In this document: positions 1,460 to 56,248 of the stretch, piece by piece
Position numbering within the stretch: position 1 is the stretch's first letter
Layout: each line of letters begins with the position of its first letter
Source of the DNA: a virus
Lineage: Duplodnaviria > Caudoviricetes
Direction: 5' to 3' (one strand)
IMG/VR virus record: IMGVR_UViG_3300031853_000038
Span: 601-64,600 of that record
Length of the DNA stretch: 64,000 nt
Notes under the pieces: model-generated
Database searches by the model: none
What the model was told of the DNA's origin: nothing
Seen by the model: only the letters and a program-made list of their open reading frames with translations
Translations under genes and position numbers: made by a program

Positions 1460-2572
1460 CTATAATATTTCTGTTAAGCAGCTTTCATAAAATTTCTTAA
1501 ATAAATTATAATTGGCTACTCGTATATAAGCAAAGATTTCTCTTGCTCTTTCTATTGTCAAACTTCTTTTATATCTATATTCAGATTTAAAATTTTGTAC
1601 AAACTTATATAAAGAGTTTTTCTTTCTTCCATTTGTAAAAAAGACAGGGTTCATTTCACATAAACTACCATTAAATAAATCTAATAATAGAAAAAAATCT
1701 TCCCAAATCTTATCTGTAAAGAAGTTATCATCATAAATAAGTGAAATTCTTTTACGGTTCGTACAAGCAATTATAAACTGATCGTACATTTTTTCTACAC
1801 CATTATCCACAAAATCTTGTTGATCCTTAAAACCATAAGTAACAATATATTGTATAGACTTTGAACTGTTTTGAAGAGGAGAAACCTTTAAAAAATGTTT
1901 AAAATAATCTGTTGACATCAATCCATAATAATTTAGATTAAAGAAGGCGGCAGAGCTTCGAAAATATATCCATTTCTCCATATCTTCTTCATTATAAACT
2001 TGTATTGGAAATTTTGTGCTTATCGCATTTATCCCCACTTGTTTCTCTGGATTCTTCTCTAACATTTTTTTAATTACTACTTCACTATCTTTTATTTTAT
2101 TTAAATCATAGTCGTGAAAGAAATAATTATACCCTTTAGACATATCAATTTGTTTTTCAAAATCGCCCCAAATCGTTTTCCCATCTAAGGATAAACGCAT
2201 ATGGCGGCAATTTAAGCATTTCTTAAAAGTTTCTCTATTCTTTTTAAAATCTCCAAAGCTGTCCATCATTTTATCATAAATAGAAGTATCGGGAACCAAA
2301 GTTTCAATTTCTTTTGGTAAAGGAATATATTTATTATTAGAATAGCTTAATCCACCATAGAGAATATTATCATATTTTAATAAGTCTGGAAAATCCCCAT
2401 CATCATAGTCTTTTCTATAAACAAATGTATTAAAAAGGGCAGGATTAAAAAGGGGAGATAATACAGTTATTTCCCCTTTATTTTTATAATATGCAGAATA
2501 TTTCATTAATTCAAGATTTGGCGCAGTATGGATATAGGTAGCCATATCTGCATCATATAATCCTACACTCAT
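1460..2572 (-). CDS. Hypothetical protein; N-terminus resembles phage radical-SAM-associated proteins (PNLxLMKxSAYYK) but has no CxxxCxxC motif
   Basis: 370 aa ORF coupled to the dnaE stop; motif similarity recalled, not searched. Confidence 0.5.
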   Translation of the reverse strand: MSVGLYDADMATYIHTAPNLELMKYSAYYKNKGEITVLSPLFNPALFNTFVYRKDYDDGDFPDLLKYDNILYGGLSYSNNKYIPLPKEIETLVPDTSIYDKMMDSFGDFKKNRETFKKCLNCRHMRLSLDGKTIWGDFEKQIDMSKGYNYFFHDYDLNKIKDSEVVIKKMLEKNPEKQVGINAISTKFPIQVYNEEDMEKWIYFRSSAAFFNLNYYGLMSTDYFKHFLKVSPLQNSSKSIQYIVTYGFKDQQDFVDNGVEKMYDQFIIACTNRKRISLIYDDNFFTDKIWEDFFLLLDLFNGSLCEMNPVFFTNGRKKNSLYKFVQNFKSEYRYKRSLTIERAREIFAYIRVANYNLFKKFYESCLTEIL

Positions 2573-5500
2573 TCTATTTCATCTCTCTCTGTTTTAGTTT
2601 CCAAAGTTCCATCATCATTTATTTTTGTGATTAATTCAACCATATGATATGGAGTTGACTTATATTTCTTACATACAAATTCATTACTTCCGCGGCGAAT
2701 ACCAGTAACAATAATTTTATTTCCTCTTTTTAGCCAAGAACGTTCTACTATTGTCTTTTTTCCAGTAATGGGATTTTTAACTGAAATTTGTTTATCATAA
2801 TTTGTAAATGCGTCTCCGTAAATTTTTACAATAACAATCCCATTTTTAGTTAACAAAGTAACAGTTTTTCTTGTTTTGTCTCTGTCTAATACCGTGCCCA
2901 TAATCCTTGTAATTTTATATAATGGAATTACACGATTATTTTTTTTAAAAGTTTTTTCGATTTGAGGCTCTTCTGGCAAAGAGAAAAAATCTTCACAATT
3001 ATATAAATATTCATCTATATCTTCTAATTCATGTGTTTTAAAATAACAAGAAACGGAGTCCATTTCCCATTTACTATTTGTTCCATCACAATACTTATTC
3101 CACAAATCTTGATATAACCTTTCATTAATCTTATCTTTTAACTCCTCACTATGCTCTTTTACCCATGGTCTTATAATATCCATTTCTTTCTTATAATACT
3201 TTTTTTCCCATAAATCTTTGTTTATAGCAAAGCCACTTTCAGATTTTTCGTTCGGAGAAAGATCGTCAAAATCGCAATTTTTCTCATAAAATTTATAAGC
3301 GATGTTATCCAGCAACAAAATGTCTGCGTCTTTAAATTCTTTTTTCTTGATATATTTCGTAAAATTATAAAAGCGTTTTTGTCTGTCATATTTTTCTGGT
3401 ATCAAATTAAAATCAATAAGCATTTTCATATTTTGCAGAGTAACTCTTTTCTTCTTATCCGCTACTTCGTTAATATACTCAGATAATATATTATTTTTAT
3501 CTCCTATGCTATCAAATGCTCCGCTTTTTATTAAATTTACCATTTTCGGTTTGCTCAACTTTATTTTTGACATAAAATCTTTTAAATCTTGATAGGGTCT
3601 GTTTTCTATAATATCTTTGATAATAGTTTTTCCGACAGAAGTAATTCCGCTTAATCCAAACCTAATGCTATTTGTTTTGACGTCTGGGGTAAAAGTAAAA
3701 CTAGATTTATTGATGTCTGGTGGAGAAACTTTTATTCCAGCCATATTCATTTTTCCAATAGCTGCCGCAATTTTCCCGTAATTATGTTTATCTGCTTTTT
3801 TCTTTTGTTTTCTTTTGGTATTTATAACATCTTCATTTTCCGCTTCATTTTCTTCTTCATCCTCAATATCATCTTCATTTTCGTCATAATCTCCATCTAT
3901 CTCTTCTGCGCCGCCGCTATCACTAATAAGACAAGCGCAATCCCAATAAATTTCAGGATACGAAGTAGCAAGATATAAAGTTTGTATTCCTACAAAAGAG
4001 TAAGCCAATGCGTGAGGTTCTGCGAACGAATAAGACATTTGTGGCGCCATACAAGTTTTCCACACATATTCTGCCAAATTTTCGCTATTGCATCCAGAAA
4101 TAAATTTTTCCTTTAATTTTGGAACTTCGCTTATTTTTTTCTTCGCAACAATTTTTCTAGCTAAGTTTGCGTCTTTAAGAGAAAAATTCGCAACATTCAT
4201 ACAAATCAACATCAATTTTTCTTGCGTCGTTGGGCAACCAGATGTGGGCAGGTAAAATGGTTCTATTTTTTTTATTTCTTCTTTTGTTAAACCATACTCA
4301 TTAACTTCCTCATACCATTGAGACATATCGTCCCTTAGTCTAATATATCTTTCTATTGGACGCTCCTGACCTTTTTCTCCAACCAGTCTAGTTAATGCAT
4401 TTGCCATCATCATTTCTGTTGGATTTTTCGGTTTAATTGATGTTGCTGCCTGCAAACCTACTTGTGTTGAAAATTGAAAGATGTCTAATATATTACCTTG
4501 ACCGAGGGCACTCCAAATTTTTTCGTCCTCGATATTTAAGCTTTTAGGGTGTAAATATTTATTATAGACTTCTCTTAATGGCATTTGAGGAAGTAACGAG
4601 TCTCTTTGTAATAATTGAATTGTAGAAATAAGCCTGTCGCATATTTCTGTAAGTAAAAAATCAAATTTTACATCTCCACACTTTTCCGCTTGATGGAGTG
4701 AGAATTGAGTAATTAAATCTCCACCTGGACTTCTCATTAACGCGCCAGTTTCGCAGCATGAGTTATTATATATAATGACACCAGATGCATGAGTACTTCT
4801 TGTTGAAATTAGTCCTTCAATGCGTTTAACAATATCTAATAATCCCGGATATTTATTTATTTCATTTATAAATGTTTGATTTGGTTTACGATCTTTTTCT
4901 TCGTTTCCATATAACATCTCTGAAATCGTCCATGTGATACCACGTTCTGATGGAATTAAGCTTGAAATATAATGAGCCACATCAATATCAATACCTTCAG
5001 GAAATTCGGCAGACCGATATCCTCTGCAGGCCGTCAAGATCGCAGCGCGTGGTGCGATAGTTGTAAAAGTAGCAACTTGTAGAAGATTTGTTTCGCCAAT
5101 TTGTTCTCTTATTTTCTGAAAGATTCTTGGACGTTTTGAAGGAGCTAGATCTATATCAATATCTGGAAGTTCAGCACGATCTTTATTTAAAAATCTAAAT
5201 GAAGGCAAGTTATAATCCAGAGGATCTAATTGAGTAATTCCTAATAAATAATTTGATAAGAAACAGACAGCGCTTCCACGTCCAGGTCCAACGATTGAAC
5301 CACACTCCCAAAAAAGGTCTATATAACTTTGAAATGTATTAAAATAGGCAAACAAATTATTATTTATTTTTTTTCCTATATTTCTTATAACATCCGCCTC
5401 TTCTTCTAATCTTGCTAAATATGCGTCGTCGTTGGACTTTTCTATATTCTTCAAACCGCTTAAACACTCATTTATCCAATACCTCTCATTCTTATCATCG

Positions 5501-6518: not shown

Positions 6519-7385
6519 TTATATATATTTCCAATAATATCCATATGCAGTTTTATTATTTCTTGCAGCATACGCTATTCCAGCGTGGCTTTTATTTAAT
6601 GAGCGGCCCGCGGCAGAAGCAGATTCAAACTCTTCAATAATATTCCCTTCTAAGTCTATTTTTTGAACTCTTTTCTTATTGCTTCCAACTTTTGATTTTG
6701 ATGCTACAATGAGCACTATCTCTTCAATATTGTCATCATCTACATACTGCCAAATATAATTATATGCCGTCAACAGTCTACCTGTGCAAGAACTGCAGAT
6801 TGAACCATGGCCTTTGCCAATATATCTTGCTGCGGCAGATGCCGATTCAAAGGTGTTTAAAAGCTCGCCTTCTAAACTATATTGGTTAACAGGTTTTCTA
6901 CTGTGTCTTCCAGCATATTCAGCCCTCCTAGCAAGCGTCATTTCTTCTGTGACACCGACAGAGCGTAAAATATGTCTAACTGTCTTTATATCAATATGTA
7001 GCCGCTCACTTATTTGGACAACTGTGAAACCATCATTCCAAAAATTTGATACTTCCTGTTTTAATATGGGTGCCGGACCATTTTGAGATAAAACTAAATT
7101 ATATCCATTACAATCATCAAAACCTACGTAACTTCTAAACTTGGTTATATATTCTGTTTCAATTTTAAATCTTTCTTCATCTGGACATTCTCTAATTTGC
7201 TCAACCGAAAAATTTTCAATTCCGTATTTCCGCATTGCGTTATACAAATATTCTGTAAATTGTGTGTTTCTTGCTCTTGTTTTATGCTGATTCCATCTAA
7301 TTTGCACTGTACGCGTCGTTTCTCCAATATATACTTTTCCATTAATATTATTTGTTATTTTATAAATATAAGCCATATAATTCAC
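6519..7385 (-). CDS. Free-standing GIY-YIG homing endonuclease with NUMOD1-like repeats
   Basis: YIYKITNNINGKVYIGET; repeated 'VNQYSLEGELLNTFESASAAAR' and 'VQKIDLEGNIIEEFESASAAGR' modules. Confidence 0.9.
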   Translation of the reverse strand: MNYMAYIYKITNNINGKVYIGETTRTVQIRWNQHKTRARNTQFTEYLYNAMRKYGIENFSVEQIRECPDEERFKIETEYITKFRSYVGFDDCNGYNLVLSQNGPAPILKQEVSNFWNDGFTVVQISERLHIDIKTVRHILRSVGVTEEMTLARRAEYAGRHSRKPVNQYSLEGELLNTFESASAAARYIGKGHGSICSSCTGRLLTAYNYIWQYVDDDNIEEIVLIVASKSKVGSNKKRVQKIDLEGNIIEEFESASAAGRSLNKSHAGIAYAARNNKTAYGYYWKYI

Positions 7386-10838: not shown

Positions 10839-11841
10839 CGTATACTCCTATATTTCTATAGGTACTGACTATCTCTTAACAAATTAACCAATTTGCCACA
10901 CCTGTTTCGTTTTACGTATCAATAGTAAAACTACTCCCCTCTACGGGGATAGTCGATACATCGCTTATCGTAATATCTTTATATCGTCTACCATTATAAA
11001 TATCATTTATTGTTGTTCTTGAAATTTTTTCATCTAATAAATGGTATACATCCGCACAACTTTTTCCTGAAGCAAATTGTTGCTTCATAAATATTACAAG
11101 TTCTCTAGTAATTTTTTGTCTTGGATGGGGATTATACTTAAAAACTTCTGGCATAATAGATTTCCAAGTTGTACCATGCCACATTTTTTGAAAAGTGCTA
11201 TAAAGAATTCCTTTATCTTTAAAATATTTTTCATAAATATCTCTACTTCTTTTTCCCTCTGAATACCAAATTCTACATTGCTTTACTTCTTCGTTGGTCA
11301 TTTTTGCACAAGGATGATTTTCTGCTCTAGGGGTGTTTCGTCCATCAGATAAATCACCACCTTTTGTAGCATTATATCCTTTATTATAGCTATCATAATA
11401 ACTTATCCAATATATTTCTTTTTCTTTAAGTTCATTTTCACTACATTCTTCGATTATTTTAAAAGAAAAATTTTCTCTACCATATTTTTTCATAGCCATA
11501 TACAATGGTTTTCTAATTTCGTCTGGCTTTGTAGTATGATAACATTTACTATAATGATCTGACCATCTTTTTAAGCAATCTTTAGAAAGTCCTATATATT
11601 TTTTCCCATTTATTAAATTTTCTATACAATAAATACCGCAAATTTTATCCATTATAATCACTCCTTATCTAAAAAGTATTTTATTGTGATTATAAGTGGA
11701 ATTATTGACAATATAATATAATATTTTGATACATGACACGGGATTACCTTTGACTTTACTCAGTAAGGCTTCCCCGTTAGCTAATTATAAATTAACCCGA
11801 CTGATAGGTCGATAAGGTGTGTAAAGGCACAACTTACGTCT
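10839..11841 (-). mobile_element. Group I intron in dnaB (1003 nt) with internal GIY-YIG ORF
   Basis: 5' exon ends in U (AGAGGT), intron ends in G; IGS TTGTGCCTTT pairs with AGAGGT|GCAA with U.G at the splice site; P4-like GCTAACGGGGAA...GGTAATCCCGTG; R GTATCGACTATC; S AAGAGATAGTCA. Confidence 0.9.
10912..11661 (-). CDS. Intron-encoded GIY-YIG homing endonuclease
   Basis: CGIYCIENLINGKKYIG; the 3' end of the ORF overlaps the intron R/P8 core sequence. Confidence 0.9.
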   Translation of the reverse strand: MIIMDKICGIYCIENLINGKKYIGLSKDCLKRWSDHYSKCYHTTKPDEIRKPLYMAMKKYGRENFSFKIIEECSENELKEKEIYWISYYDSYNKGYNATKGGDLSDGRNTPRAENHPCAKMTNEEVKQCRIWYSEGKRSRDIYEKYFKDKGILYSTFQKMWHGTTWKSIMPEVFKYNPHPRQKITRELVIFMKQQFASGKSCADVYHLLDEKISRTTINDIYNGRRYKDITISDVSTIPVEGSSFTIDT

Positions 11842-19119: not shown

Positions 19120-20252
19120 CATTTATATAAATATAAATTGACTATTTCTTCTATCTTAAAAAGATAGTCTATCGTTTCGGTTTTCAGTTACTTCGTTTCC
19201 TAAAATAACGCTATGTGTCAATAATAGCCCTACTCCCCAACAACGGGGATAGTCGATACAGGCTGATTTTATAATGAAATCCAATGAGCTGGCTGATTTG
19301 TACTTGGTACTATACCAGCTGATTTTGTGGTATTTTTGTTTTTATTAATTGCGTGTCGATCGCACTTTGCCCATTTAGAAGCTTCAGTTTCTGATGAAAA
19401 AACTAAACCAGTTTCAATATTTTTTATAGATTTTCCACCATTAGGCTTTTTGCTTTCTTGAAATAAACAATATTTTCTAACTACAGATTGAGAGCGATTT
19501 AAAAGTTGTCCTATTTTATTATATGATAACCCCTTCAATCTTAGTTCTCTCATTTTTTGTATTTCTTCTTCTGAACAAGCTCTTTGTTTATTATTTATTC
19601 CTAATGAAACATTTCCATCTGCATGACTTTTAGCTTGTGTACTATGCCAGCTCCTATTTTCATCCGTATATACTTCTGGAAGAACGTATCTCCAAGTTTC
19701 AAAATGCCATACTTTTTGAAGTCCTCTTTTACTAATAATATGCTGGTATTTTTTATAAACTTCTTTAAAGGGAATATGATTTCCATAAGCGAGCCTAATT
19801 TCTCTAACTTGATTTTCTGTTAATAAAGCCCTGCCGTTAGCTTCTCCAATATTACTTCCACCGCCAGGAGTGCTATTATATCCTTTTTCATAGGAATTAT
19901 AGCGGCGAATCCAATAGATTTCTCGTTCATCTAGTTTATCATATTCACACTTTTCTAATATTTCATAGTAAAAATTGCTTATTCCCAAATTATACATAGC
20001 TAAATGAATTTTTGTATTGTGATCTAAAGCATGAATATTTTTTGCGGAATTTTTGTGACTATACCATCGATTTTCACATTGTACACTTTGTCCGATATAA
20101 ACCAAATTATTAATTTTATTTTTAATTATATAAATACCACAAGTTTTCATTATAAAATCCTCCCACGAGATTTGACCCTCGTTAGCCGACAAGAAATGCC
20201 GACCCCAGTGACGAACTGGCAAAATAGATAAGGGCGATTCTTAATTTGTTTC
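19120..20252 (-). mobile_element. Group I intron in gyrB (1133 nt) with internal GIY-YIG ORF
   Basis: Splits CEG|DSA; 5' exon ends in U, intron ends in G; IGS GAATCGCCCTT pairs with GAGGGT|GATTC; R GTATCGACTATC, S AAGAAATAGTCA. Confidence 0.92.
19269..20150 (-). CDS. Intron-encoded GIY-YIG homing endonuclease (likely start ATG 20150)
   Basis: CGIYIIKNKINNLVYIGQS; RBS GGGAGG upstream of 20150; the longer TTG start in the track runs through intron core RNA. Confidence 0.85.
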   Translation of the reverse strand: MKTCGIYIIKNKINNLVYIGQSVQCENRWYSHKNSAKNIHALDHNTKIHLAMYNLGISNFYYEILEKCEYDKLDEREIYWIRRYNSYEKGYNSTPGGGSNIGEANGRALLTENQVREIRLAYGNHIPFKEVYKKYQHIISKRGLQKVWHFETWRYVLPEVYTDENRSWHSTQAKSHADGNVSLGINNKQRACSEEEIQKMRELRLKGLSYNKIGQLLNRSQSVVRKYCLFQESKKPNGGKSIKNIETGLVFSSETEASKWAKCDRHAINKNKNTTKSAGIVPSTNQPAHWISL

Positions 20253-44895: not shown

Positions 44896-44936
44896 TGTAA
44901 ATGGGACGGTAGCCCAACGGCAGAGGCAATGGACTT

Positions 44937-45835
44937 TTTCTGGTAGAAAATTTTCAGTTTTAACTTAAAACTTTATATCCAATTATTATTTTTCTTACTT
45001 ATATATGAAAATAATAAGAGGTGGTTTTATGAAAAAATGGGAAAATTTTTCTAAGGAAGAATTAGAACAATTTGTAAAAAACAGTTATTCCTACGCTGAA
45101 GTTTGTAAGCAATGTGGTTATTCACCAACTGGTGGTAGCTCAGTCAAATCTATAAAAGAAATGATTGAACATTATCATTTTGATATATCACACTTTACAA
45201 AACAAAGTTGGAATAAGAATAATTTTGATTATTCTCGTTTTAGAAAAGGAAACAATATTAAAAGGGGTGAAGCGGCTAAGGCGCTAACCTTTTTAAGAGG
45301 ACACCGATGTGAGAATTGTAACAATCAAGAATGGTTAGGTCAAAAAATACCACTTGAAATACACCACATTGACGGAGATAATCAAAATAATGAAATGGAT
45401 AATTTGCAACTTTTATGTCCAAATTGTCACGCTTTAACTGAAAATTGGCGTGGAAAAAATATTAATCAAGGTATTGAGAAAGTATCTGATGAAGATTTTG
45501 TTAATGCGTTAAAAAATTCACCCAATATTAGACAAGCATTGATTAAATTAGGTTTGTCACCAAAAGGTGGAAATTATGTTAGAGCAAATGAATTGATTGT
45601 AAAATATCAAATTGTTCATCTTCTGGAGCAGTAATCTTGGAAACTTATTACTGAATGATGGCTAATTCGGTGAATAACCAGAGAACGCCGAGCTAAATCA
45701 GTCAATTTAAATGGTTGTAAATGTGTAGAGACTATATACCATCTACCTAAGTCTTAAAATAAAAGATAAGGTAAAGACATAGTCCAGACTACAACGTAAT
45801 ATAATATTGCGGCTATAGTGATATAGAGTAGTAAG
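44937..45835 (+). mobile_element. Group I intron (899 nt) in the tRNA anticodon, encoding an HNH endonuclease
   Basis: P GCTAATTCGGTGAA, Q GAACGCCGAGCT, R TGTAGAGACTATA, S AAGACATAGTCC; ends in G. Confidence 0.9.
45029..45634 (+). CDS. Intron-encoded HNH homing endonuclease
   Basis: CENC...PLEIHHIDGDNQNNEMDNLQLLCPNCH; RBS GAGGTG before ATG 45029. Confidence 0.9.
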   Translation: MKKWENFSKEELEQFVKNSYSYAEVCKQCGYSPTGGSSVKSIKEMIEHYHFDISHFTKQSWNKNNFDYSRFRKGNNIKRGEAAKALTFLRGHRCENCNNQEWLGQKIPLEIHHIDGDNQNNEMDNLQLLCPNCHALTENWRGKNINQGIEKVSDEDFVNALKNSPNIRQALIKLGLSPKGGNYVRANELIVKYQIVHLLEQ

Positions 45836-46099
45836 AAAATCCATCAAGTGAGGGTTCGAATCCCTCTCGTCCTACCAAGTCATAGCAAAACTCGACTAGG
45901 TTAATAAAGATGCGCGGTTGACTGACCTTAAAGTTAAGAATTAAGAGTTATAACTCAAAAAAATGTAGTGAAATTTTTATGATTTTACTTACAAGTACCT
46001 TCTCAGACGAGAGTGTCTATGACATTACTGGCTTGGCGGAGTAGTAATTGAGGCACATAACAGTTGGTAGTAACCTGTTCGCAATATTAAAACTACATT

Positions 46100-47980: not shown

Positions 47981-48244
47981 GTAGCGCAAGAGGATTCATA
48001 GTAGCCGGGAACGACAGCGCTATACAAGTGTCAAACGAATTACTATGAAGGGCTGGACGTAAGTCCCGGGTCCACCGAAGTAGGGGAGACTCCCCTTTTA
48101 ATAACGTTCTCAGTAGTTGTGCGCCGAGAACTTGGACAGCCGTAAAGGAAATCCCTGCAACACCAGCAAAGGGTTGGTATCGACATATGTGGCGCCCACT
48201 TTAAAAATTATACCTTTATGGTTTATAGAAAGGAATAAAATAAA

Positions 48245-48454: not shown

Positions 48455-48566
48455 AAAGCACAGGCAGCAAATACTTATCTTGTGGCGTAAAGGTTAGCGC
48501 ATCAACCTTAAAAAGTTGACGATAGCAGTTCGAATCTGCTCAAGATTGAAATATAGAAGGTGCTTT
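48455..48566 (+). ncRNA. CAGCAA-stem RNA B enclosing a tRNA-like body with an 8-nt anticodon loop
   Basis: AAAGCAC-AGGCAGCAAAT...GTGCTTT; D arm GCGT/GCGC, TCAAC-CTTAAAAA-GTTGA, AGCAG-TTCGAAT-CTGCT; no CCA. Confidence 0.65.
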
Positions 48567-48643
48567 GAATAAAAAATTTTTTGACTTTTTTATAAATTTT
48601 TAGTATAATATTTATAGAAAAATTAAGAAAGGAAAATAAATAT

Positions 48644-48715
48644 TGCGGGCTAGAGTAGTGGTTACTCAACAGTTTCATAGGCTGTGTTAGGTCGGTTCGA
48701 TTCCGACGCCCGCAA
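48644..48715 (+). tRNA. tRNA with CAT anticodon (elongator Met or Ile2); no encoded CCA
   Basis: TGCGGGC/GCCCGCA acceptor, ACAGT-TTCATAG-GCTGT; followed directly by a ribozyme. Confidence 0.85.
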
Positions 48716-48770
48716 GAGACACATCTATATAGCCTCCACGTGGCGTGTCTTGGGTAATGCTAATATATAG
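48716..48770 (+). ncRNA. Theta (minimal HDV-like) ribozyme 1
   Basis: P1 GAGACAC/GTGTCTT (G1.U), P2 CTATATA/TATATAG, P3 GCC/GGC, L3 TCCACGT, GG, J4/2 GCTAA. Confidence 0.9.
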
Positions 48771-48782
48771 AATTAAATATAT

Positions 48783-48855
48783 TCCTCAATAGCACAACTG
48801 GTAGTGCACGGCGCTGTTAACGCCGGGGTTGCAGGATCGTACCCTGCTTGAGGAG
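48783..48855 (+). tRNA. tRNA-Asn(GTT); no encoded CCA
   Basis: CGGCG-CTGTTAA-CGCCG, G73. Confidence 0.92.
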
Positions 48856-48911
48856 GATTCTCGAGTACTATACTTCCACGTAGTGAGAATTGGGTAACGC
48901 TAGATTAGTAC
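48856..48911 (+). ncRNA. Theta (minimal HDV-like) ribozyme 2
   Basis: P1 GATTCTC/GAGAATT, P2 GTACTA/TAGTAC, P3 ACT/AGT, L3 TCCACGT, GG-GTAACG-CTAG. Confidence 0.9.
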
Positions 48912-48937
48912 ATTATTATAAAGAGGAGCTGAGTTTA

Positions 48938-49588
48938 TTGGCATACATTTATAAAATAACAAATAGAATTAATGGAAAGGTTTATATTGGTCAAACAAGT
49001 TTAACTATTAAACATCGTTTACAACAGCATATCAGAGATTCTAAACGTCAAACAATGGAAAATAGACCTTTATATAGAGCTTTTAAAAAATATGGGTATA
49101 ATAATTTTATTATAGAAGAAGTTGAACAATGTAAAAATGATGAAGTAAATGAAAAAGAAAAATATTGGATAAAATATTATGATTCTTATCATAATGGATA
49201 TAATGCTACACTTGGAGGAGAAGGAAGTATAACTATTGATCGTCAATTAGTAATAAATACTTATAAAAAATTACAAACTTGCAAAGCGGTAGCAGAAGAA
49301 TTAAAAATTAATTCAGGTACAGTTAGTGATATTCTTAAAAGTCAAGGAATAGTAGTTACTTCTTCACAAGAATTAAATAGAAAAAGAAACGGAAAACCAG
49401 TAAATATAATTGATGATAATGGAAATATTTTAATAACTTTTAATACATTAAAAGATGCAGCATTATACATTCAAAAAGAAAAAAATATTACAACAGATTG
49501 TAAAGGTATTGTCTCTCATATAAGAGATGTTTGTAATAAAAAAAGAAAAACTGCTTATTCACATAAATGGAAATGGAAAGACACTTAA
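48938..49588 (+). CDS. GIY-YIG homing endonuclease with NUMOD1-like C-terminus (likely TTG start at 48938)
   Basis: AYIYKITNRINGKVYIGQT; RBS GAGGAG; the longer track start overlaps ribozyme 2. Confidence 0.9.
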   Translation: MAYIYKITNRINGKVYIGQTSLTIKHRLQQHIRDSKRQTMENRPLYRAFKKYGYNNFIIEEVEQCKNDEVNEKEKYWIKYYDSYHNGYNATLGGEGSITIDRQLVINTYKKLQTCKAVAEELKINSGTVSDILKSQGIVVTSSQELNRKRNGKPVNIIDDNGNILITFNTLKDAALYIQKEKNITTDCKGIVSHIRDVCNKKRKTAYSHKWKWKDT

Positions 49589-49611
49589 GAAAAGGAGTTG
49601 ATGTAAATAAA

Positions 49612-50169
49612 ATGAGTATTTATTTAATTTCTGATACTCATTTTGGTCACGACCGTGAATTTATTTTTCAACCTCGCGGCTTTAGAGATATTTATTCTCA
49701 CGATCAAAATATAATTCATAATTGGAATTCAGTTGTAGGTAAAAATGATACTGTGTATCATCTTGGTGATGTAATGCTTGGGGATAATGTCCACGGATTA
49801 GAGTGTTTAAAGCAATTAAACGGTCAAATTCATATTATTCGCGGCAATCACGATACGAATCCACGCTTAGCACTATATAAAGAGTGTGATAATGTAGTAG
49901 AAGTTCGTGATGCGGCTTATCTCAAATATGGGAAATATCATTTTTTCCTTACACATTATCCTTGTAATAGTGGTAGCCTTGAAAAAGATTCTTTAAAGGG
50001 TATGACTTGTAACTTTTTTGGACACACTCACCAACAAACTAATTTTTACAGAGATATTCCATATATGTATCACGTAGGTGTTGATTCACATAATTGTACT
50101 CCTGTTAATATTGATGATGCTATCAATGATATGAAGGTTAAAATTGAGGAATGTAAGAATTTTCTTTAA
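49612..50169 (+). CDS. Calcineurin-like metallophosphoesterase
   Basis: SDTHFGH, LGD, RGNHD, THYP, GHTH. Confidence 0.9.
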   Translation: MSIYLISDTHFGHDREFIFQPRGFRDIYSHDQNIIHNWNSVVGKNDTVYHLGDVMLGDNVHGLECLKQLNGQIHIIRGNHDTNPRLALYKECDNVVEVRDAAYLKYGKYHFFLTHYPCNSGSLEKDSLKGMTCNFFGHTHQQTNFYRDIPYMYHVGVDSHNCTPVNIDDAINDMKVKIEECKNFL

Positions 50170-50189
50170 AACTAATCTTCCTCATAAAT

Positions 50190-50264
50190 CGAGGTGTAGT
50201 CTAGTTCGGCTAAGGCGCGCGGTTTGGGACCGTGATATCGGGGGTTCAAATCCCTCCACTTCGA
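50190..50264 (+). tRNA. tRNA-Pro(TGG); no encoded CCA
   Basis: CGCGG-TTTGGGA-CCGTG, C1-G72, A73. Confidence 0.92.
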
Positions 50265-50320
50265 GGGTACCAGTACAGATATGTTCACGTCGTGTACCTG
50301 TTTAAAACAAGAGTCTGTGC
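50265..50320 (+). ncRNA. Theta-like ribozyme 3 (variant, 6-bp P1)
   Basis: P1 GGGTAC/GTACCT (G1.U), P2 GTACAGA/TCTGTGC, P3 ATG/CGT, L3 TTCACGT. Confidence 0.7.
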
Positions 50321-50347
50321 AATACTATAAATAGGAGCTGTTTAATT

Positions 50348-50968
50348 ATGGCATACATTTATAAAATTACTAATAAAATAAATGGAAAAATTTATATAGG
50401 AAAAACATTAAAATCTATTGAAAATAGATGGAGAGAGCATATAAAGGCTTTTGATAAAAAAGAATGTGAAAACAGACCTTTATATAGGGCTTTTAAAAAA
50501 TATGGCATTGAAAATTTTAATATAGAGGAAATTGAAAAGTGTCCAGAACGAGATGCAAGTAATAGAGAGTGCTATTGGATAGAGCAGTATGGCTCTTTTA
50601 AAAATGGTTATAATGCTACTTTAGGTGGAGATGGAAAAAGATATGCTGATTATGATTTAATTTTTAATTTATGGGAAAATGGAAATGATATAAAAACCAT
50701 TCATAAAATTACAAAATATGATGCAGATACAATACGTTCTGCTTTAGATGATAATAATATTACTTCAGAGATACGAAAGCAAAGGCAATATAAAGGTTTT
50801 TCTAAACCAGTAGCAATGTTAGATAAAGACACTAAAGAAATTTTAAAAGTTTTTTCTTCTATTTCAGAAGCATATAAATTTTTAAATAAAAATGGTGATG
50901 GTCATATTTCAAGTGTGTGTAAGGGAAAAAGAAAAACTGCTTATGGATATAGCTGGAAATTAATTTAG
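50348..50968 (+). CDS. GIY-YIG homing endonuclease, paralog of 48938..49588
   Basis: MAYIYKITNKINGKIYIGKT...GYNATLGGDG...KRKTAYGYSWK. Confidence 0.9.
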   Translation: MAYIYKITNKINGKIYIGKTLKSIENRWREHIKAFDKKECENRPLYRAFKKYGIENFNIEEIEKCPERDASNRECYWIEQYGSFKNGYNATLGGDGKRYADYDLIFNLWENGNDIKTIHKITKYDADTIRSALDDNNITSEIRKQRQYKGFSKPVAMLDKDTKEILKVFSSISEAYKFLNKNGDGHISSVCKGKRKTAYGYSWKLI

Positions 50969-50987
50969 ATAAATAAGTAAAATTATT

Positions 50988-51006
50988 AATCCCTCCACTT
51001 CGACCA
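50988..51006 (+). repeat. Direct repeat of the tRNA-Pro 3' end (AATCCCTCCACTTCGA) followed by CCA
   Basis: Identical to 50249..50264. Confidence 0.9.
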
Positions 51007-51401
51007 TATGCTGTGCTATCGGTGATACGGGCGGTTATGTTCTACATATTTTTGGAAAACGTATCCTTGGGAACGCCCTAAAATACGTCAGTATAGTCTT
51101 TTATAATAGTTTTCTAATACTGGTTGTTATATGAAAACTAATTCGCCCGTAGTTAATGGTTCAAATTCTACTAGCAAACTTCCACGATGGTGTTAGAAAA
51201 GTGGATAGAATAACGGTACCGCATACTGCAAGCGCTGTAATAGTATCCGTGGCGGATTCTCCTTTTAGCCTATGATTGAAAAAGTATTTATACTTTTTGG
51301 AAGAAGTGGTTTGGCAAGACCGTTTCTGATTTTTTCTTTGAATTGCCCCAGACGTCTTCGGACTATGGGTTAGGGAATAAGATGAGTCTTATTCCTTATA
51401 T

Positions 51402-51496
51402 GGCGTCCTAATCCTAATTGGTAAGGAAATAGTCTTGAAAACTATTAGTAGTCGCAGAGGTGCGGTGTCTCGGTTCGAGTCCGAGGGGCGTCGCCA
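51402..51496 (+). tRNA. tRNA-Ser(TGA)
   Basis: ATAGT-CTTGAAA-ACTAT, long variable arm, G73, CCA. Confidence 0.92.
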
Positions 51497-51684
51497 AGTA
51501 AGTTGGAAATTAAAAATGGGCAGCAAAAACAGAGGTAGGTAAATTTTACTGTTTTTACTTTCTGTCGGTATCTATACTGATGAAAGGGGTTTTCCTTGCC
51601 GAAGTACAAGGTGCGTATTGCCGAAAAAACCTACATTATTTTATAAATTTTGGAGATTATAAGTAAATAATTTTGGAGGTTTAT

Positions 51685-51927
51685 ATGAGTCATCGTAGAA
51701 AGATGGAAGAAAAACATAGATTAAAACATTTATATCATCAAACGCAATCTTTCTATGAAACTGGCGTCTACTATGATGAAGATAAAAAACGCTATATACG
51801 ATGGTATGCTCCAAGAAGAGCTAAATATTATCGTAGAATAAGTAATAAAAAAGTTCGTCATACAAAATATTTAGTAAATGGTAATACATATAAGAAATAT
51901 TTTGATTATTGGTGGGAACTTTATTAA
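51685..51927 (+). CDS. Small basic hypothetical protein
   Basis: RBS GGAGGT; YYRRISNKKVRH...YKKYFDYWW. Confidence 0.6.
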   Translation: MSHRRKMEEKHRLKHLYHQTQSFYETGVYYDEDKKRYIRWYAPRRAKYYRRISNKKVRHTKYLVNGNTYKKYFDYWWELY

Positions 51928-52273
51928 AATAAATATAATGACAAGAGAAACTTACTTAGGTACCCAATGAGTAAGAGAGGTTTCGCAACTCGAACGTTGT
52001 TTCCGTGTGCGGAAAATACAACAGTATCTGTATAGGAGTCATGACCTATTAAAATTCTGGCTATAAAATTTAGACAGAGAGCCAAGAAGTAGACTAAAGT
52101 CATTATGATTGGAACATTCAGCGCCACAAAGGTCTGCGGGTTTAAGCGATTGTTGTCGATAGGAATAATCGCCCTTTAAAAGTGGAAAGGATAACTTTTA
52201 CGTTCTCTTACGTATGGAGCGGCGAGTGGTATTCGTCGATAACTTTGCGCTAAATAATACCCTACAGTCATCT

Positions 52274-52349
52274 GGCTCGTTAGTTAAGTTGGTCACAACG
52301 CTGGATTCTCAGTCCAGAGGCAAGAGTTCGAATCTCTTACGAGTTACCA
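52274..52349 (+). tRNA. tRNA-Glu(CTC)
   Basis: CTGGA-TTCTCAG-TCCAG, CCA. Confidence 0.92.
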
Positions 52350-52572
52350 CTGGCAAGGTGGCGCTTAACGGTCAAAGTTTGGCGGTATCTTTAAAAACCG
52401 CTATATAGGGTAAGGCAAATTTGTAAGTGTGATTCCTGATTAGGTATTTTATTATAATACCTAAAGGAAAATAGGGTTTTGCCAATATCGAATAGAAAGA
52501 GGTTGATTTCGATATAGTAGCTGGTCAGAGGAGAGTGCAGAAAGCTACTTAAAAACACGAGGTTACTCCATT

Positions 52573-52609: not shown

Positions 52610-52840
52610 GAAATGAAAAGAAAGGGAAAGAATATATGAAAAAAATATCAGAGATAGCAAAAGAAATGTCTTCCTTCATTGATTCTATAAGTTTATATCT
52701 TACAGATAGTGAGCTAGCCCAAGCTGCAATAATTGAACGAGATTTACATCATTATGCTAATCTTAACGAATAAAATTTTTGACTTTTTTATAAATTTTTA
52801 GTATAATATATATAGAAAAGTTAAGAAAGAAAAAGAAAAT

Positions 52841-52959
52841 AAAGCACAGACAGCAAAGATTATTTTATAACGATTTTGGAACTTGAAGTAGTGGGTTCGA
52901 GTCCCACCCCAAATGAATGGGTAGCTCAACAGGCAGAGCGCAAGTAGTTATAGTGCTTT
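52841..52959 (+). ncRNA. CAGCAA-stem RNA D: YrlA-like Y RNA with a circularly permuted tRNA domain
   Basis: AAAGCAC/GTGCTTT, TATAAC/GTTATA, ACTTG/CAAGT, then T arm GTGGG-TTCGAGT-CCCAC, loop-closed acceptor CCCA-AATGAA-TGGG, D arm TA-GCTC-AACAGGCA-GAGC. Confidence 0.75.
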
Positions 52960-53027
52960 GTGTAATTGGAAAAACAAAAATTCCAGCAATCAACAAATGT
53001 GTGGTTAGCTGACCTTAAAGCCTATTC

Positions 53028-53477: not shown

Positions 53478-53493
53478 GTACCTTGATAATTTA

Positions 53494-54075
53494 ATAAGTG
53501 CTTTGACAATTTACAACCCAGTGCTAAAACAAGAATGCTCTGTTCTTGCTGGGGTACGACGAAATGGTCAGCGCAACGAAAGATGGATACATCTGGATAG
53601 CGGAATATCCAACTGTTTTAAAGTAGAGATACTTTAAAAGAAGGACGAACTCCAACACCAAAGTCGTAGCACACTTATTGTCGCAAGTAAAGGTAGGATG
53701 CGCATCGCTAGCGTAATAGACGCTTCAGATGGAGAAAAATCTTAGTTAGGTTCAGCTTGGTAACTGAACAAACCTAAGAAAAACCAATAAGCTAGTTTGC
53801 CGTGAAACGAAGAAATTCGTGTATAAGATGTGTATGCAACTCCGAGTAGGTAAAGGCAATGCAAATTGGATTTGAGGATTATAGTTAAAAATAATTTGCT
53901 GAATAGATGCTGAAAGGTACGGGTAGTCAATCCCGTATAGGTTAGTTTTTCGGAAACAGGGATAAGAAGTATAGAGGTCGCTACTTTATGCTCAGCCTTA
54001 TTCTTCCTATTGACTGAATATGCTTGAAGATAGTAAGATGTAGAATGAAGGTTCGTAAATTGTCAAAGCACTTAT
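53494..54075 (+). ncRNA. Large structured ncRNA, 582 nt (ROOL-like by size and context)
   Basis: Perfect 21-bp terminal inverted repeat ATAAGTGCTTTGACAATTTAC/GTAAATTGTCAAAGCACTTAT; many internal hairpins; no good ORF; inside a phage tRNA array. Confidence 0.65.
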
Positions 54076-54465: not shown

Positions 54466-54532
54466 CAATTAAAATTTTTTGACTTTTTTATAAATTTTTA
54501 GTATAATATATATAGAAAAGTTAAGAAAGATA

Positions 54533-54568
54533 AAGATACTTGCAACATACCAATAAATAAAGTGTCTT
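54533..54568 (+). ncRNA. Degenerate CAGCAA-stem element F
   Basis: AAGATAC-TTGCAAC...GTGTCTT directly after a promoter repeat, the same position as element D. Confidence 0.35.
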
Positions 54569-55492: not shown

Positions 55493-56248
55493 ATGAGAAC
55501 AGATATTTTAGATAGAAAAGAAGATATTCTTAATTGGATTAGAGAGAAAAAACCAAAATCTTATATAGCCGCACAGTTAAAATGCAAGCCTTCGACTCTG
55601 AATAATTATTTAGAAAAAATGGATATTAAATATGCTGGCCGTCAAGATTGGAATAAGGGTAAAACATTTAACAATTATATTCCAGCACAAGAATATGCAA
55701 AAAAAGATTTTGTTAAAAGTTATATTTTAAAAGAAAAACTAATTAAAGAAGGTATAAAGGAATATCGTTGTGAAATTTGCGGTTTAACTGAATGGCAGAA
55801 TAAACCTATACCATTAGAATTACATCATAAAGATTGTAATCATTTTAATAACAATTTTAATAATTTACAAATATTATGTCCAAATTGCCATGCTCAACAA
55901 GAAGGTAACGCAGGAGCGAATTCAAACCATTATAATACTCAACATATGAACAAAATTAAAAATGAAATAATTAAAGAAAAGAAAAAAATTTGTCCAATCT
56001 GTAAAAAAAATGAAATTAATTTTTCTTCAAAAATGTGTATAGATTGTATGCATATTTCTCGAAGATTGGTTGAAAGACCAGATAGAGAAGCATTTAAAAC
56101 ACTTATTAGAACCATACCTTTTGTACAAATTGGTAAAAAATTTGGAGTTTCTGATAATGCTATTCGTAAATGGTGCAAAACTTATAATTTACCCTCAAAG
56201 GTATCAGAAATAAAACAATACTCTGATGAAGAATGGAAAAAGTTATAA
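55493..56248 (+). CDS. Free-standing HNH homing endonuclease
   Basis: CEICG...PLELHHKDCNHFNNNFNNLQILCPNCH; C-terminal CPIC..CIDC and HTH. Confidence 0.9.
   Translation: MRTDILDRKEDILNWIREKKPKSYIAAQLKCKPSTLNNYLEKMDIKYAGRQDWNKGKTFNNYIPAQEYAKKDFVKSYILKEKLIKEGIKEYRCEICGLTEWQNKPIPLELHHKDCNHFNNNFNNLQILCPNCHAQQEGNAGANSNHYNTQHMNKIKNEIIKEKKKICPICKKNEINFSSKMCIDCMHISRRLVERPDREAFKTLIRTIPFVQIGKKFGVSDNAIRKWCKTYNLPSKVSEIKQYSDEEWKKL

Follow-up and report, generated by a model that had tools for sequence, protein, structure and literature searches.

A theta-type ribozyme and a GIY-YIG endonuclease gene as a probable mobile cassette at the 3′ end of a phage tRNA-Pro gene

In a virus of the Caudoviricetes (Duplodnaviria; IMG/VR record IMGVR_UViG_3300031853_000038), the gene for the proline transfer RNA (tRNA) with anticodon UGG is followed directly by a small ribozyme-like fold and a homing endonuclease gene, and then by a second copy of its own 3′ end. 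We analysed this arrangement within a stretch of 64,000 nucleotides (nt), positions 601 to 64,600 of the record, hereafter called the window; the record itself (64.6 kb) is estimated to be 49% complete. The features found at the locus are as follows.

50190..50264, + strand: tRNA-Pro(UGG) gene (ARAGORN 50189-50265; Rfam tRNA 50190-50264, 55 bits)
50249..50264, + strand: repeat copy 1 (R1), corresponding to tRNA-Pro positions 58 (in the T loop) to 73
50265..50320, + strand: putative minimal ribozyme of the hepatitis delta virus (HDV)-like kind, theta-type variant, 56 nt (structure parse and shuffles)
50321..50347, + strand: leader of 27 nt with the ribosome-binding site GGAG (sequence; leader conserved in relatives)
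50348..50968, + strand: free-standing, intact GIY-YIG/NUMOD1 homing endonuclease gene, 206 amino acids (aa) (Pfam, PHROG)
50969..50987, + strand: AT-rich spacer of 19 nt between the nuclease stop codon and repeat copy 2 (sequence)
50988..51006, + strand: repeat copy 2 (R2, 50988-51003) and CCA (51004-51006)

The tRNA-Pro gene ends with the discriminator A50264 and lacks an encoded CCA. A first-pass annotation of this DNA had claimed a 16-bp duplication of the tRNA-Pro 3′ end with CCA behind its second copy, and a ribozyme and a GIY-YIG gene as the sole content between the copies. The duplication was found to be exact: the 16-mer is present in two copies in the window, and still in two when up to 2 mismatches are allowed, while shuffled sequences gave a mean of 0.03 matches, with two or more matches in 0 of 100 shuffles. 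The content was also as described, with the leader and the spacer to be added, since the interval from R1 to R2 contains no further feature and the GIY-YIG gene is its sole plus-strand open reading frame (ORF) of at least 40 aa. As the two copies do not differ, any place in the 16 bp may have been the insertion point, giving 17 equivalent parsings; entry at the discriminator, as originally proposed, is compatible with the sequence as one of these, and the exact repeat does not single it out.

Integrase-mediated islands in tRNA genes are typically recognised by a direct repeat of the tRNA 3′ end that flanks the insert; such islands carry a replacement 3′ end, and the tRNA gene stays whole. The insert at tRNA-Pro differs from such islands in its small size (about 0.7 kb), in the lack of an integrase and in the ribozyme that takes the place of CCA at the end of the gene. 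Neither an integrase nor a transposase was found between or beside the repeats, the chance expectation is as low as given above, and the same pattern recurs in other lineages (see below); insertion by an integrase or a transposase with target-site duplication, or a chance repeat, is therefore extremely improbable. An integrase-type tRNA island was rejected as a candidate after no tyrosine or serine recombinase gene was detected in the repeat-bounded insert. A group I intron in 50265-51006 was likewise rejected, no match to Intron_gpI being detected there and the one match in the window lying at 45606-45805; the element lies after position 73 of the tRNA, and thus no downstream exon exists to be ligated.

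The data support the view that the 19 nt of R2 plus CCA are a relic of the 3′ end that tRNA-Pro had when it still encoded CCA. The ancestral CCA end proposed in the first-pass annotation agrees well with the neighbouring and related genes: CCA is encoded by 17 of the 22 tRNAs in the array of the window and by 8 of 9 tRNA-Pro(UGG) genes in related arrays, and an exact search of JGI metagenomes gave a single match, L060 (related loci are herewith referred to by such numbers), whose tRNA-Pro is identical in its last 25 nt and continues into CCA. The DNA downstream of this match differs, indicating that L060 is not a true empty allele of the window locus. A megablast search of 48700-52400 against GenBank phages gave no match, and folding of 50960-51405 (z = -1.6) gave no indication of a structured RNA behind the relic.

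Evidence that ribozyme and nuclease gene behave as one unit came from a sister lineage, in which L103 and L139 carry the filled allele. A search with the exact, uninterrupted target of L103 and L139 (T arm, acceptor and CCA) identified L143, from a different sample, as an empty allele. Positions 856-1796 of L143 are 99.7% identical to 3198-4138 of L139 over 941 nt (3 mismatches), positions 1782-3142 are 97.1% identical to 4850-6208 of L139 over 1368 nt, and the L143 portions of the two blocks have exactly the 15-nt repeat in common. L139 is therefore L143 plus 726 bp (ribozyme, leader and nuclease gene) and a 15-bp duplication, indicating that ribozyme and nuclease were gained or lost together at a CCA-followed 3′ end, in good agreement with the proposal of the first-pass annotation that the two form one cassette. 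A search for an empty allele of L094 gave none.

This comparison also bears on the possibility that the relic is the rest of a second, CCA-type tRNA-Pro, of which the 5′ 57 nt were overwritten by the nuclease gene behind a pre-existing, ribozyme-bearing tRNA-Pro. Endonuclease genes do break tRNA genes of such arrays, as seen in both L139 and L143 (see below), but two tRNA-Pro(UGG) genes were found in none of the related arrays and the empty allele L143 has one tRNA-type 3′ end only. We consider a tandem origin very unlikely.

The RNA upstream of the cassette site in L103, L139 and L143 has a T arm, the 3′ strand of an acceptor stem and a CAU loop, and was called by neither ARAGORN nor Rfam. 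In L139 (3350-4100) and L143 (1009-1757) this tRNA-like gene is split in its anticodon loop by a 749-nt element with an HNH ORF, which is absent from L103. No group I intron was detected in this element by Rfam, and its presence assorts independently of the ribozyme cassette.

Besides filled and empty alleles, decayed forms were identified. The nuclease gene of L136 carries internal deletions, and in L078 (8320-8470) a mini-ORF of about 46 codons joins the first and last residues of the nuclease between the ribozyme and a 17-nt relic. These allele states fit the life cycle of homing endonucleases, namely invasion, decay and loss.

The relic is not restricted to the window. In at least five other lineages (including tRNA-Met and tRNA-Pro), a 13-17-nt copy of the 3′ end of the own tRNA was found past the nuclease stop codon, as listed below.

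L094, tRNA-Met: relic 16/16, no CCA after
L103 and L139, tRNA-like with CAU loop: relic 15/15, CCA after
L108, of the L103/L139 lineage: relic 13/14, decayed, CTA after
L117, tRNA-Pro: relic 14 exact, 16/18, no CCA after
L122, tRNA-Met: relic 13 exact, 15/17, no CCA after
L078, tRNA-Met: relic 17/17, nuclease gene reduced to about 46 codons, no CCA after

Each relic matches its own upstream tRNA, indicating that the repeat derives from the target and not from a conserved sequence of the cassette. All the relics begin in the 3′ half of the T loop (positions 57-61) and extend to position 73, and the ribozyme lies inside the repeats in every relic-bearing case. The relic starts 0-1 nt past the nuclease stop codon in four lineages, and 19 nt past it in the window. 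Relic searches in the first 31 nuclease loci and in 52 distinct variant-class ribozymes (for the class see below) gave none.

Theta ribozymes are minimal HDV-like ribozymes that adjoin the 3′ ends of tRNAs in gut phages (Kienbeck et al. 2024, PMC10879173). The 56 nt behind tRNA-Pro were parsed after the segmentation scheme in the supplement of that paper (P1-P2-P3-L3-P3′-P1′-J1/4-L4-J4/2-P2′); the helices were assigned by coordinates, the MAFFT alignments being out of structural register. The resulting segments are as follows.

50265-50320, + strand, helices (parse): G1 at 50265; P1 50265-70/50294-99; P2 50273-80/50313-20; P3 50281-83/50291-93
50265-50320, + strand, loops and joins (parse): L3 50284-90; J4/2 50308-12 with the candidate catalytic C50308

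The sequence fits the theta plan with P1 paired at 6/6, P2 at 8/8 and P3 at 3/3 positions and a 7-nt L3; G50265, next to A50264, forms the G1·U pair with T50299, and C50308 occupies the first J4/2 position. The same topology appeared in 7 of 100,000 shuffles of these 56 nt. When 14 related ribozymes of the window and of other phages were compared, pairing was seen in 229 of 230 helix cells, with P1 and P2 covarying freely, and P3 of the tRNA-Pro copy shows one compensatory and one wobble change against the consensus. Its L3 is TTCACGT, compared with TCCACGT in canonical theta, and it belongs to a variant class (U|UC in L3, GU after P1′) for which an exact-pattern scan of IMG/VR gave 63 loci; the sole variant-class ribozyme in the array of the window is the one inside the repeats. 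The canonical copies behind tRNA-Met, tRNA-Asn and tRNA-Ala in the window match HDV-F-prausnitzii at 24-34 bits, below the gathering score. In the position of G1 directly after the discriminator, in the CCA-less tRNA, in the helix plan and in the segment lengths the tRNA-Pro copy agrees with theta ribozymes, from which it differs as a variant in L3, P1.1 and J4/2. Our reading from the sequence is that it would be a genuine theta-type ribozyme of the variant class.

The 206-aa ORF matches the full-length GIY-YIG profile (PF01541, E = 7e-12) and NUMOD1 (23.5 bits, cut-off 22.8), falls within phage homing-endonuclease families of PHROG, and is free of in-frame stops. A total of 56 related loci were identified in IMG/VR, most of them within phage tRNA arrays, at a distance of 25-120 nt from the tRNA that precedes them. 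The enzyme is 39% identical to SegB of phage T4 across 96 aa, confined to the N-terminal catalytic domain. The two are alike in the GIY-YIG domain and in the location of the gene within a phage tRNA array, a short distance after a tRNA (T4 segB lies 41 nt behind tRNA-Ile); they differ in that SegB is without a ribozyme and T4 without a duplicated tRNA end, and in the NUMOD1-type C-terminus of the window enzyme. The nearest relative of the nuclease, L004 (59% aa identity), aligns across the ribozyme and T arm as well, and is linked to the same ribozyme class but behind a different tRNA.

The protein tree of the nuclease family was star-like and uninformative, partly owing to in-frame TAG codons in many relatives. 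One to nine such codons are present in the nuclease ORFs of L006, L009-L012, L016-L018, L028, L033 and L034, and L019 has one TGA. Since several of these loci encode a tRNA with a CTA anticodon, the phages concerned probably read TAG as sense.

The adjacency of theta ribozymes and GIY-YIG genes, which the first-pass annotation had suggested counting, was determined in two samples and found strongly enriched in both. In the de-duplicated nuclease-sampled set, in which tRNAs up to 130 nt upstream of a nuclease gene were taken as adjacent, a ribozyme was detected on 8 of 18 nuclease-adjacent tRNAs versus 4 of 160 others (odds ratio 31, p=8e-7), or in 8 of 16 when immediate neighbours only were counted; an encoded CCA was absent in 12 of the 18 versus 25 of the 160. 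The ribozyme-sampled set consisted of 76 IMG/VR loci selected by the exact canonical core pattern without reference to the nuclease. Here 17 of 72 canonical theta ribozymes were followed within 10-76 nt by the same nuclease family, and 17 of the 23 nuclease genes of this family lay directly behind a theta core; after de-duplication of tRNA contexts, a nuclease gene followed 10 of 34 ribozyme-bearing tRNAs versus 4 of 418 others (p=1e-9). In the variant-class sample, 7 of 63 ribozymes were associated with a nuclease. Ribozyme class follows nuclease similarity weakly (best of 35 partitions); support for fixed pairs of ribozyme and nuclease moving together between different tRNAs is weak. Among the searchable papers none joined the terms theta ribozyme and homing endonuclease, and the theta paper (PMC10879173) mentions neither endonucleases, homing nor duplicated tRNA ends.

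Such an association could also be generated if the nuclease gene were the sole mobile agent and landed behind a resident unit of tRNA-Pro and ribozyme. The 3′ part of the tRNA, the ribozyme and the nuclease gene would then have been copied by one-sided homing into the CCA-type allele of another phage, the left homology being provided by the tRNA and the right end joined illegitimately, with the 3′ end of the recipient left as the relic. For most relatives, homology to the nuclease unit indeed begins at about 50326, past the ribozyme (as observed by blastn for L005, L007, L009, L011, L012 and L016), nuclease and ribozyme are each found without the other, introns of T4 are known for one-sided homing with illegitimate junctions (review PMC2988022), and SegB co-converts flanking tRNA genes. 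However, the position of the relic immediately past the stop codon in four lineages is unexpectedly regular for illegitimate joins, the relic is kept in L139 even though both flanks are homologous to L143, and the tRNA-side flank of this pair, with its 3 mismatches, shows no conversion tract. On balance we regard a passenger role of the ribozyme as unlikely, and the joint insertion of ribozyme and nuclease gene as the better account.

Several observations weigh against this account of one ribozyme-nuclease cassette. First, an exact search of IMG/VR for the 3′ end of the window tRNA-Pro gave no contig, and the empty allele of the window locus itself was not found in exact searches of IMG/VR and JGI metagenomes; the empty allele in related phages by which the first-pass annotation had proposed to check the insertion is thus available in the sister lineage (L143 versus L139 and L103), and not at the window locus. 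L143 could, in addition, be a revertant that arose by recombination between the repeats instead of a naive allele, but the cassette unit is identical in either case. Second, about 12 of some 18 ribozyme-nuclease cassettes, including the one behind tRNA-Asn in the window, carry no relic. Third, either partner is often found alone: most theta ribozymes of the ribozyme-sampled and variant-class sets are without a nuclease, and the nuclease family is found without a ribozyme behind tRNAs (8 of 16 immediate neighbours) and also away from tRNAs. In L087, L114 and L140, with flanks 93-98% identical to those of L103 (L087 98%, L114 90-93%), the identical ribozyme plus 4 nt is followed by a spacer of 20 nt, and both the nuclease and the relic are absent, indicating that the ribozyme outlasts the nuclease or can exist without it; it may also have been present before the nuclease, as in the passenger reading. 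In L010, L013, L016 and L019 the nuclease family directly follows the CCA of a tRNA with no ribozyme; the ribozyme is therefore dispensable for harmless insertion in general, and the earlier claim that it renders the insertion harmless does not extend to a general requirement.

Of the same tendency are three observations on the components themselves. The P1.1 of the tRNA-Pro ribozyme consists of one C-G pair plus U·U and its J4/2 is CAAGA, both departing from the published theta motif; the hits in part of the published theta material (PMC10879173) show a complementary P1.1 and CTAA, CTGA, CCGA, CCAA or CAAA as J4/2. A search of 50265-50320 against Rfam gave no match even at E<=5. The theta-like identity assigned in the first-pass annotation is hence upheld by the helix plan, G1 and C50308, and not by P1.1, J4/2 or an Rfam match. 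The variable stems of the window ribozyme are not especially close to those of L004 (0.59 versus a median of 0.55). Finally, the C-terminal, DNA-binding half of the nuclease has no detectable similarity to SegB, and thus the target specificity of SegB is not transferable to the window enzyme.

Taking these points into account, we consider it probable that 50265-51003 is a compact mobile cassette, composed of a theta-type ribozyme and a Seg-like GIY-YIG gene, that was inserted at the formerly CCA-encoding end of tRNA-Pro. A promoter of the array would produce one RNA with the tRNA, the ribozyme and the nuclease gene, as suggested by the promoter at 48581 and the terminator-like hairpin at 51302 (see below). 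From the predicted fold, the ribozyme would cut at A73|G1 (A50264|G50265), leaving a tRNA with a 2′,3′-cyclic phosphate that would need end-healing and CCA addition, and by the same cut a nuclease messenger RNA (mRNA) with the folded ribozyme at its 5′ end, in analogy to R2 retrotransposons. By comparison with SegB of T4, the nuclease is expected to cut tRNA alleles with an unbroken T arm, acceptor and CCA, and repair of the cut would copy the cassette into the uninterrupted allele.

The 27-bp site of T4 SegB is composed of the T-arm motif GGTTCRANTCC, a degenerate middle and CCAR; the enzyme cuts beside CCAR, or nearer the T arm if CCAR is absent, drives the inheritance of flanking tRNA genes and can generate duplications (PMC2330249). 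SegB homologues are enriched near tRNAs, and the T-loop motif recurs, as its reverse complement, in the cleavage sites of T6 SegB (PMC13096335). The uninterrupted targets of both the window and L143 contain the T-arm motif and CCA, but in the reconstructed uninterrupted allele of the window CCA is followed by T, not by a purine. In the filled allele a SegB-type site is split, R1 being without CCA and R2 without the 5′ half of the T arm, and the carrier should therefore be self-immune. The start of the relics at positions 57-61 would show where the break or the junction lay, and the duplication could have originated either from one-sided homing with an illegitimate right junction or from widely staggered cuts in a site of the 27-bp type. 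R2, with or without CCA, may serve as a right homology arm of 13-19 nt, in which case later homing would need the tRNA gene only and not the surrounding genome.

A broader extension of this model, which we put forward tentatively and hold to be possible but not the likelier outcome, is that theta ribozymes represent the RNA component of self-contained homing cassettes, each able to invade a given tRNA in any phage genome. The nuclease would cut any uninterrupted copy of the given tRNA gene from the T arm to CCA, the tRNA would provide the left and the R2 relic the right homology arm, and the flanks would be irrelevant. The ribozyme would keep the tRNA usable, free the nuclease mRNA and destroy the target of the own nuclease. 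After fixation the nuclease would decay, as may be under way in L136 and L078, and finally be lost, leaving solo theta ribozymes behind CCA-less tRNAs; such solo ribozymes would be those that dominate the published catalogues.

The predicted cassette resembles a group I intron with a homing endonuclease in that a ribozyme is packaged together with an endonuclease and the insertion into an RNA gene is tolerated. The resemblance extends to twin-ribozyme introns, with GIR1 as the ribozyme that caps the endonuclease mRNA (PMC3984707; PMC2219692), inasmuch as the ribozyme would also shape the 5′ end of the endonuclease mRNA. In contrast to group I introns, the window cassette would cleave only, without exon ligation, and it lies at the end of the gene, where CCA is replaced. 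The term intron-like, as used in the first-pass annotation, is thus applicable in a loose sense: the element differs from an intron in mechanism, there being no splicing. A further parallel is the R2 retrotransposon, a selfish element in a structural-RNA gene that is co-transcribed with its host RNA and freed from it as mRNA by its own ribozyme, which is reportedly HDV-like and located at the 5′ end. R2 is an RNA-mediated retroelement of eukaryotes and inactivates the ribosomal RNA copy in which it resides, whereas the window cassette is DNA-based and the tRNA is predicted to stay usable.

The tRNA-Pro locus belongs to a dense RNA-gene island at 46-58 kb, containing 22 tRNAs, a ROOL RNA, a group I intron, a DUF3800-XI RNA, repeated strong promoters and several homing endonuclease genes. 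None of the 17 CCA-encoding tRNAs directly precedes a ribozyme. Among the five CCA-less genes, those for tRNA-Met, tRNA-Asn, tRNA-Pro and tRNA-Ala are directly followed by a G with which an HDV-like fold begins. The remaining gene (48475-48549; ARAGORN anticodon 'taaa') is tRNA-like and has an anticodon loop of 8 nt; a counterpart of it was found at 5750-5848 of L009, a related 134-kb phage contig. Other elements around the cassette are as follows.

48856..49588, + strand: second cassette, behind tRNA-Asn (canonical theta ribozyme 48856-48911; GIY-YIG gene 48938-49588; no relic)
48581..48609, + strand: strong sigma-70-like promoter, 11/12 (consensus match only)
51302..51337, + strand: terminator-like hairpin with a T run, about 300 nt past the relic (consensus match only)

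The nucleases of the two cassettes are 41% identical in aa sequence and are therefore not recent paralogues. The promoter at 48581 probably drives tRNA-Met, tRNA-Asn, the first cassette, a phosphoesterase gene, tRNA-Pro and the tRNA-Pro cassette as one unit. Three near-identical promoter modules of about 70 nt (TTGACT, 17 nt, TATAAT) are located in the island, at 48571-48640, 52769-52838 and 54469-54538.

The phosphoesterase gene (49567-50169), encoding a calcineurin-like metallophosphoesterase, lies between the two ribozyme cassettes and ends 20 nt upstream of tRNA-Pro. Its homologues P0025 and P0045 are fused to an AAA_33 kinase-like domain, and homologues with 97% and 91% identity in ENA, Logan and JGI represent close relatives of the window phage. 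The enzyme is a candidate for healing the 2′,3′-cyclic phosphate on ribozyme-cleaved tRNAs. Neither a CCA-adding enzyme nor an RNA ligase was found in the 64.6-kb record, which covers about half of the genome.

Within 44903-45880 lie the group I intron (Rfam 55.6 bits at 45606-45805), with an HNH ORF at 45005-45634, and after it a tRNA 3′ end with CCA (45851-45880); together they look like an intron-split tRNA gene, uncalled by ARAGORN. Among the tRNAs are also the ROOL RNA (53493-54073, 324.7 bits), the DUF3800-XI RNA (48049-48095, 49.4 bits) and a sub-threshold YrlA-like match (52863-52970, 34.5 bits). Outside the island, GIY-YIG domain genes were identified at 7131-7376, 11371-11640 and 19875-20141 (minus strand), bringing the total in this half-genome to five GIY-YIG genes, in addition to HNH genes at 45005-45634 and 55493-56248.

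Theta ribozymes, described in 2024, are a very abundant feature of gut-phage tRNAs, for which neither the purpose nor the spread across many tRNAs has been explained. The adjacency to a nuclease gene, the duplicated tRNA ends and the 726-bp unit together offer a concrete, testable origin, namely that theta ribozymes were spread by a homing endonuclease. The cassette as proposed explains why ribozyme-linked tRNAs lack CCA and predicts the target of the nuclease, and it suggests a compact, portable design by which phage engineering could place inserts at tRNA sites. Self-cleavage at the end of a gene, in place of splicing, would represent a third route, in addition to self-splicing introns and inteins, by which a homing endonuclease may enter an essential gene and leave it functional.

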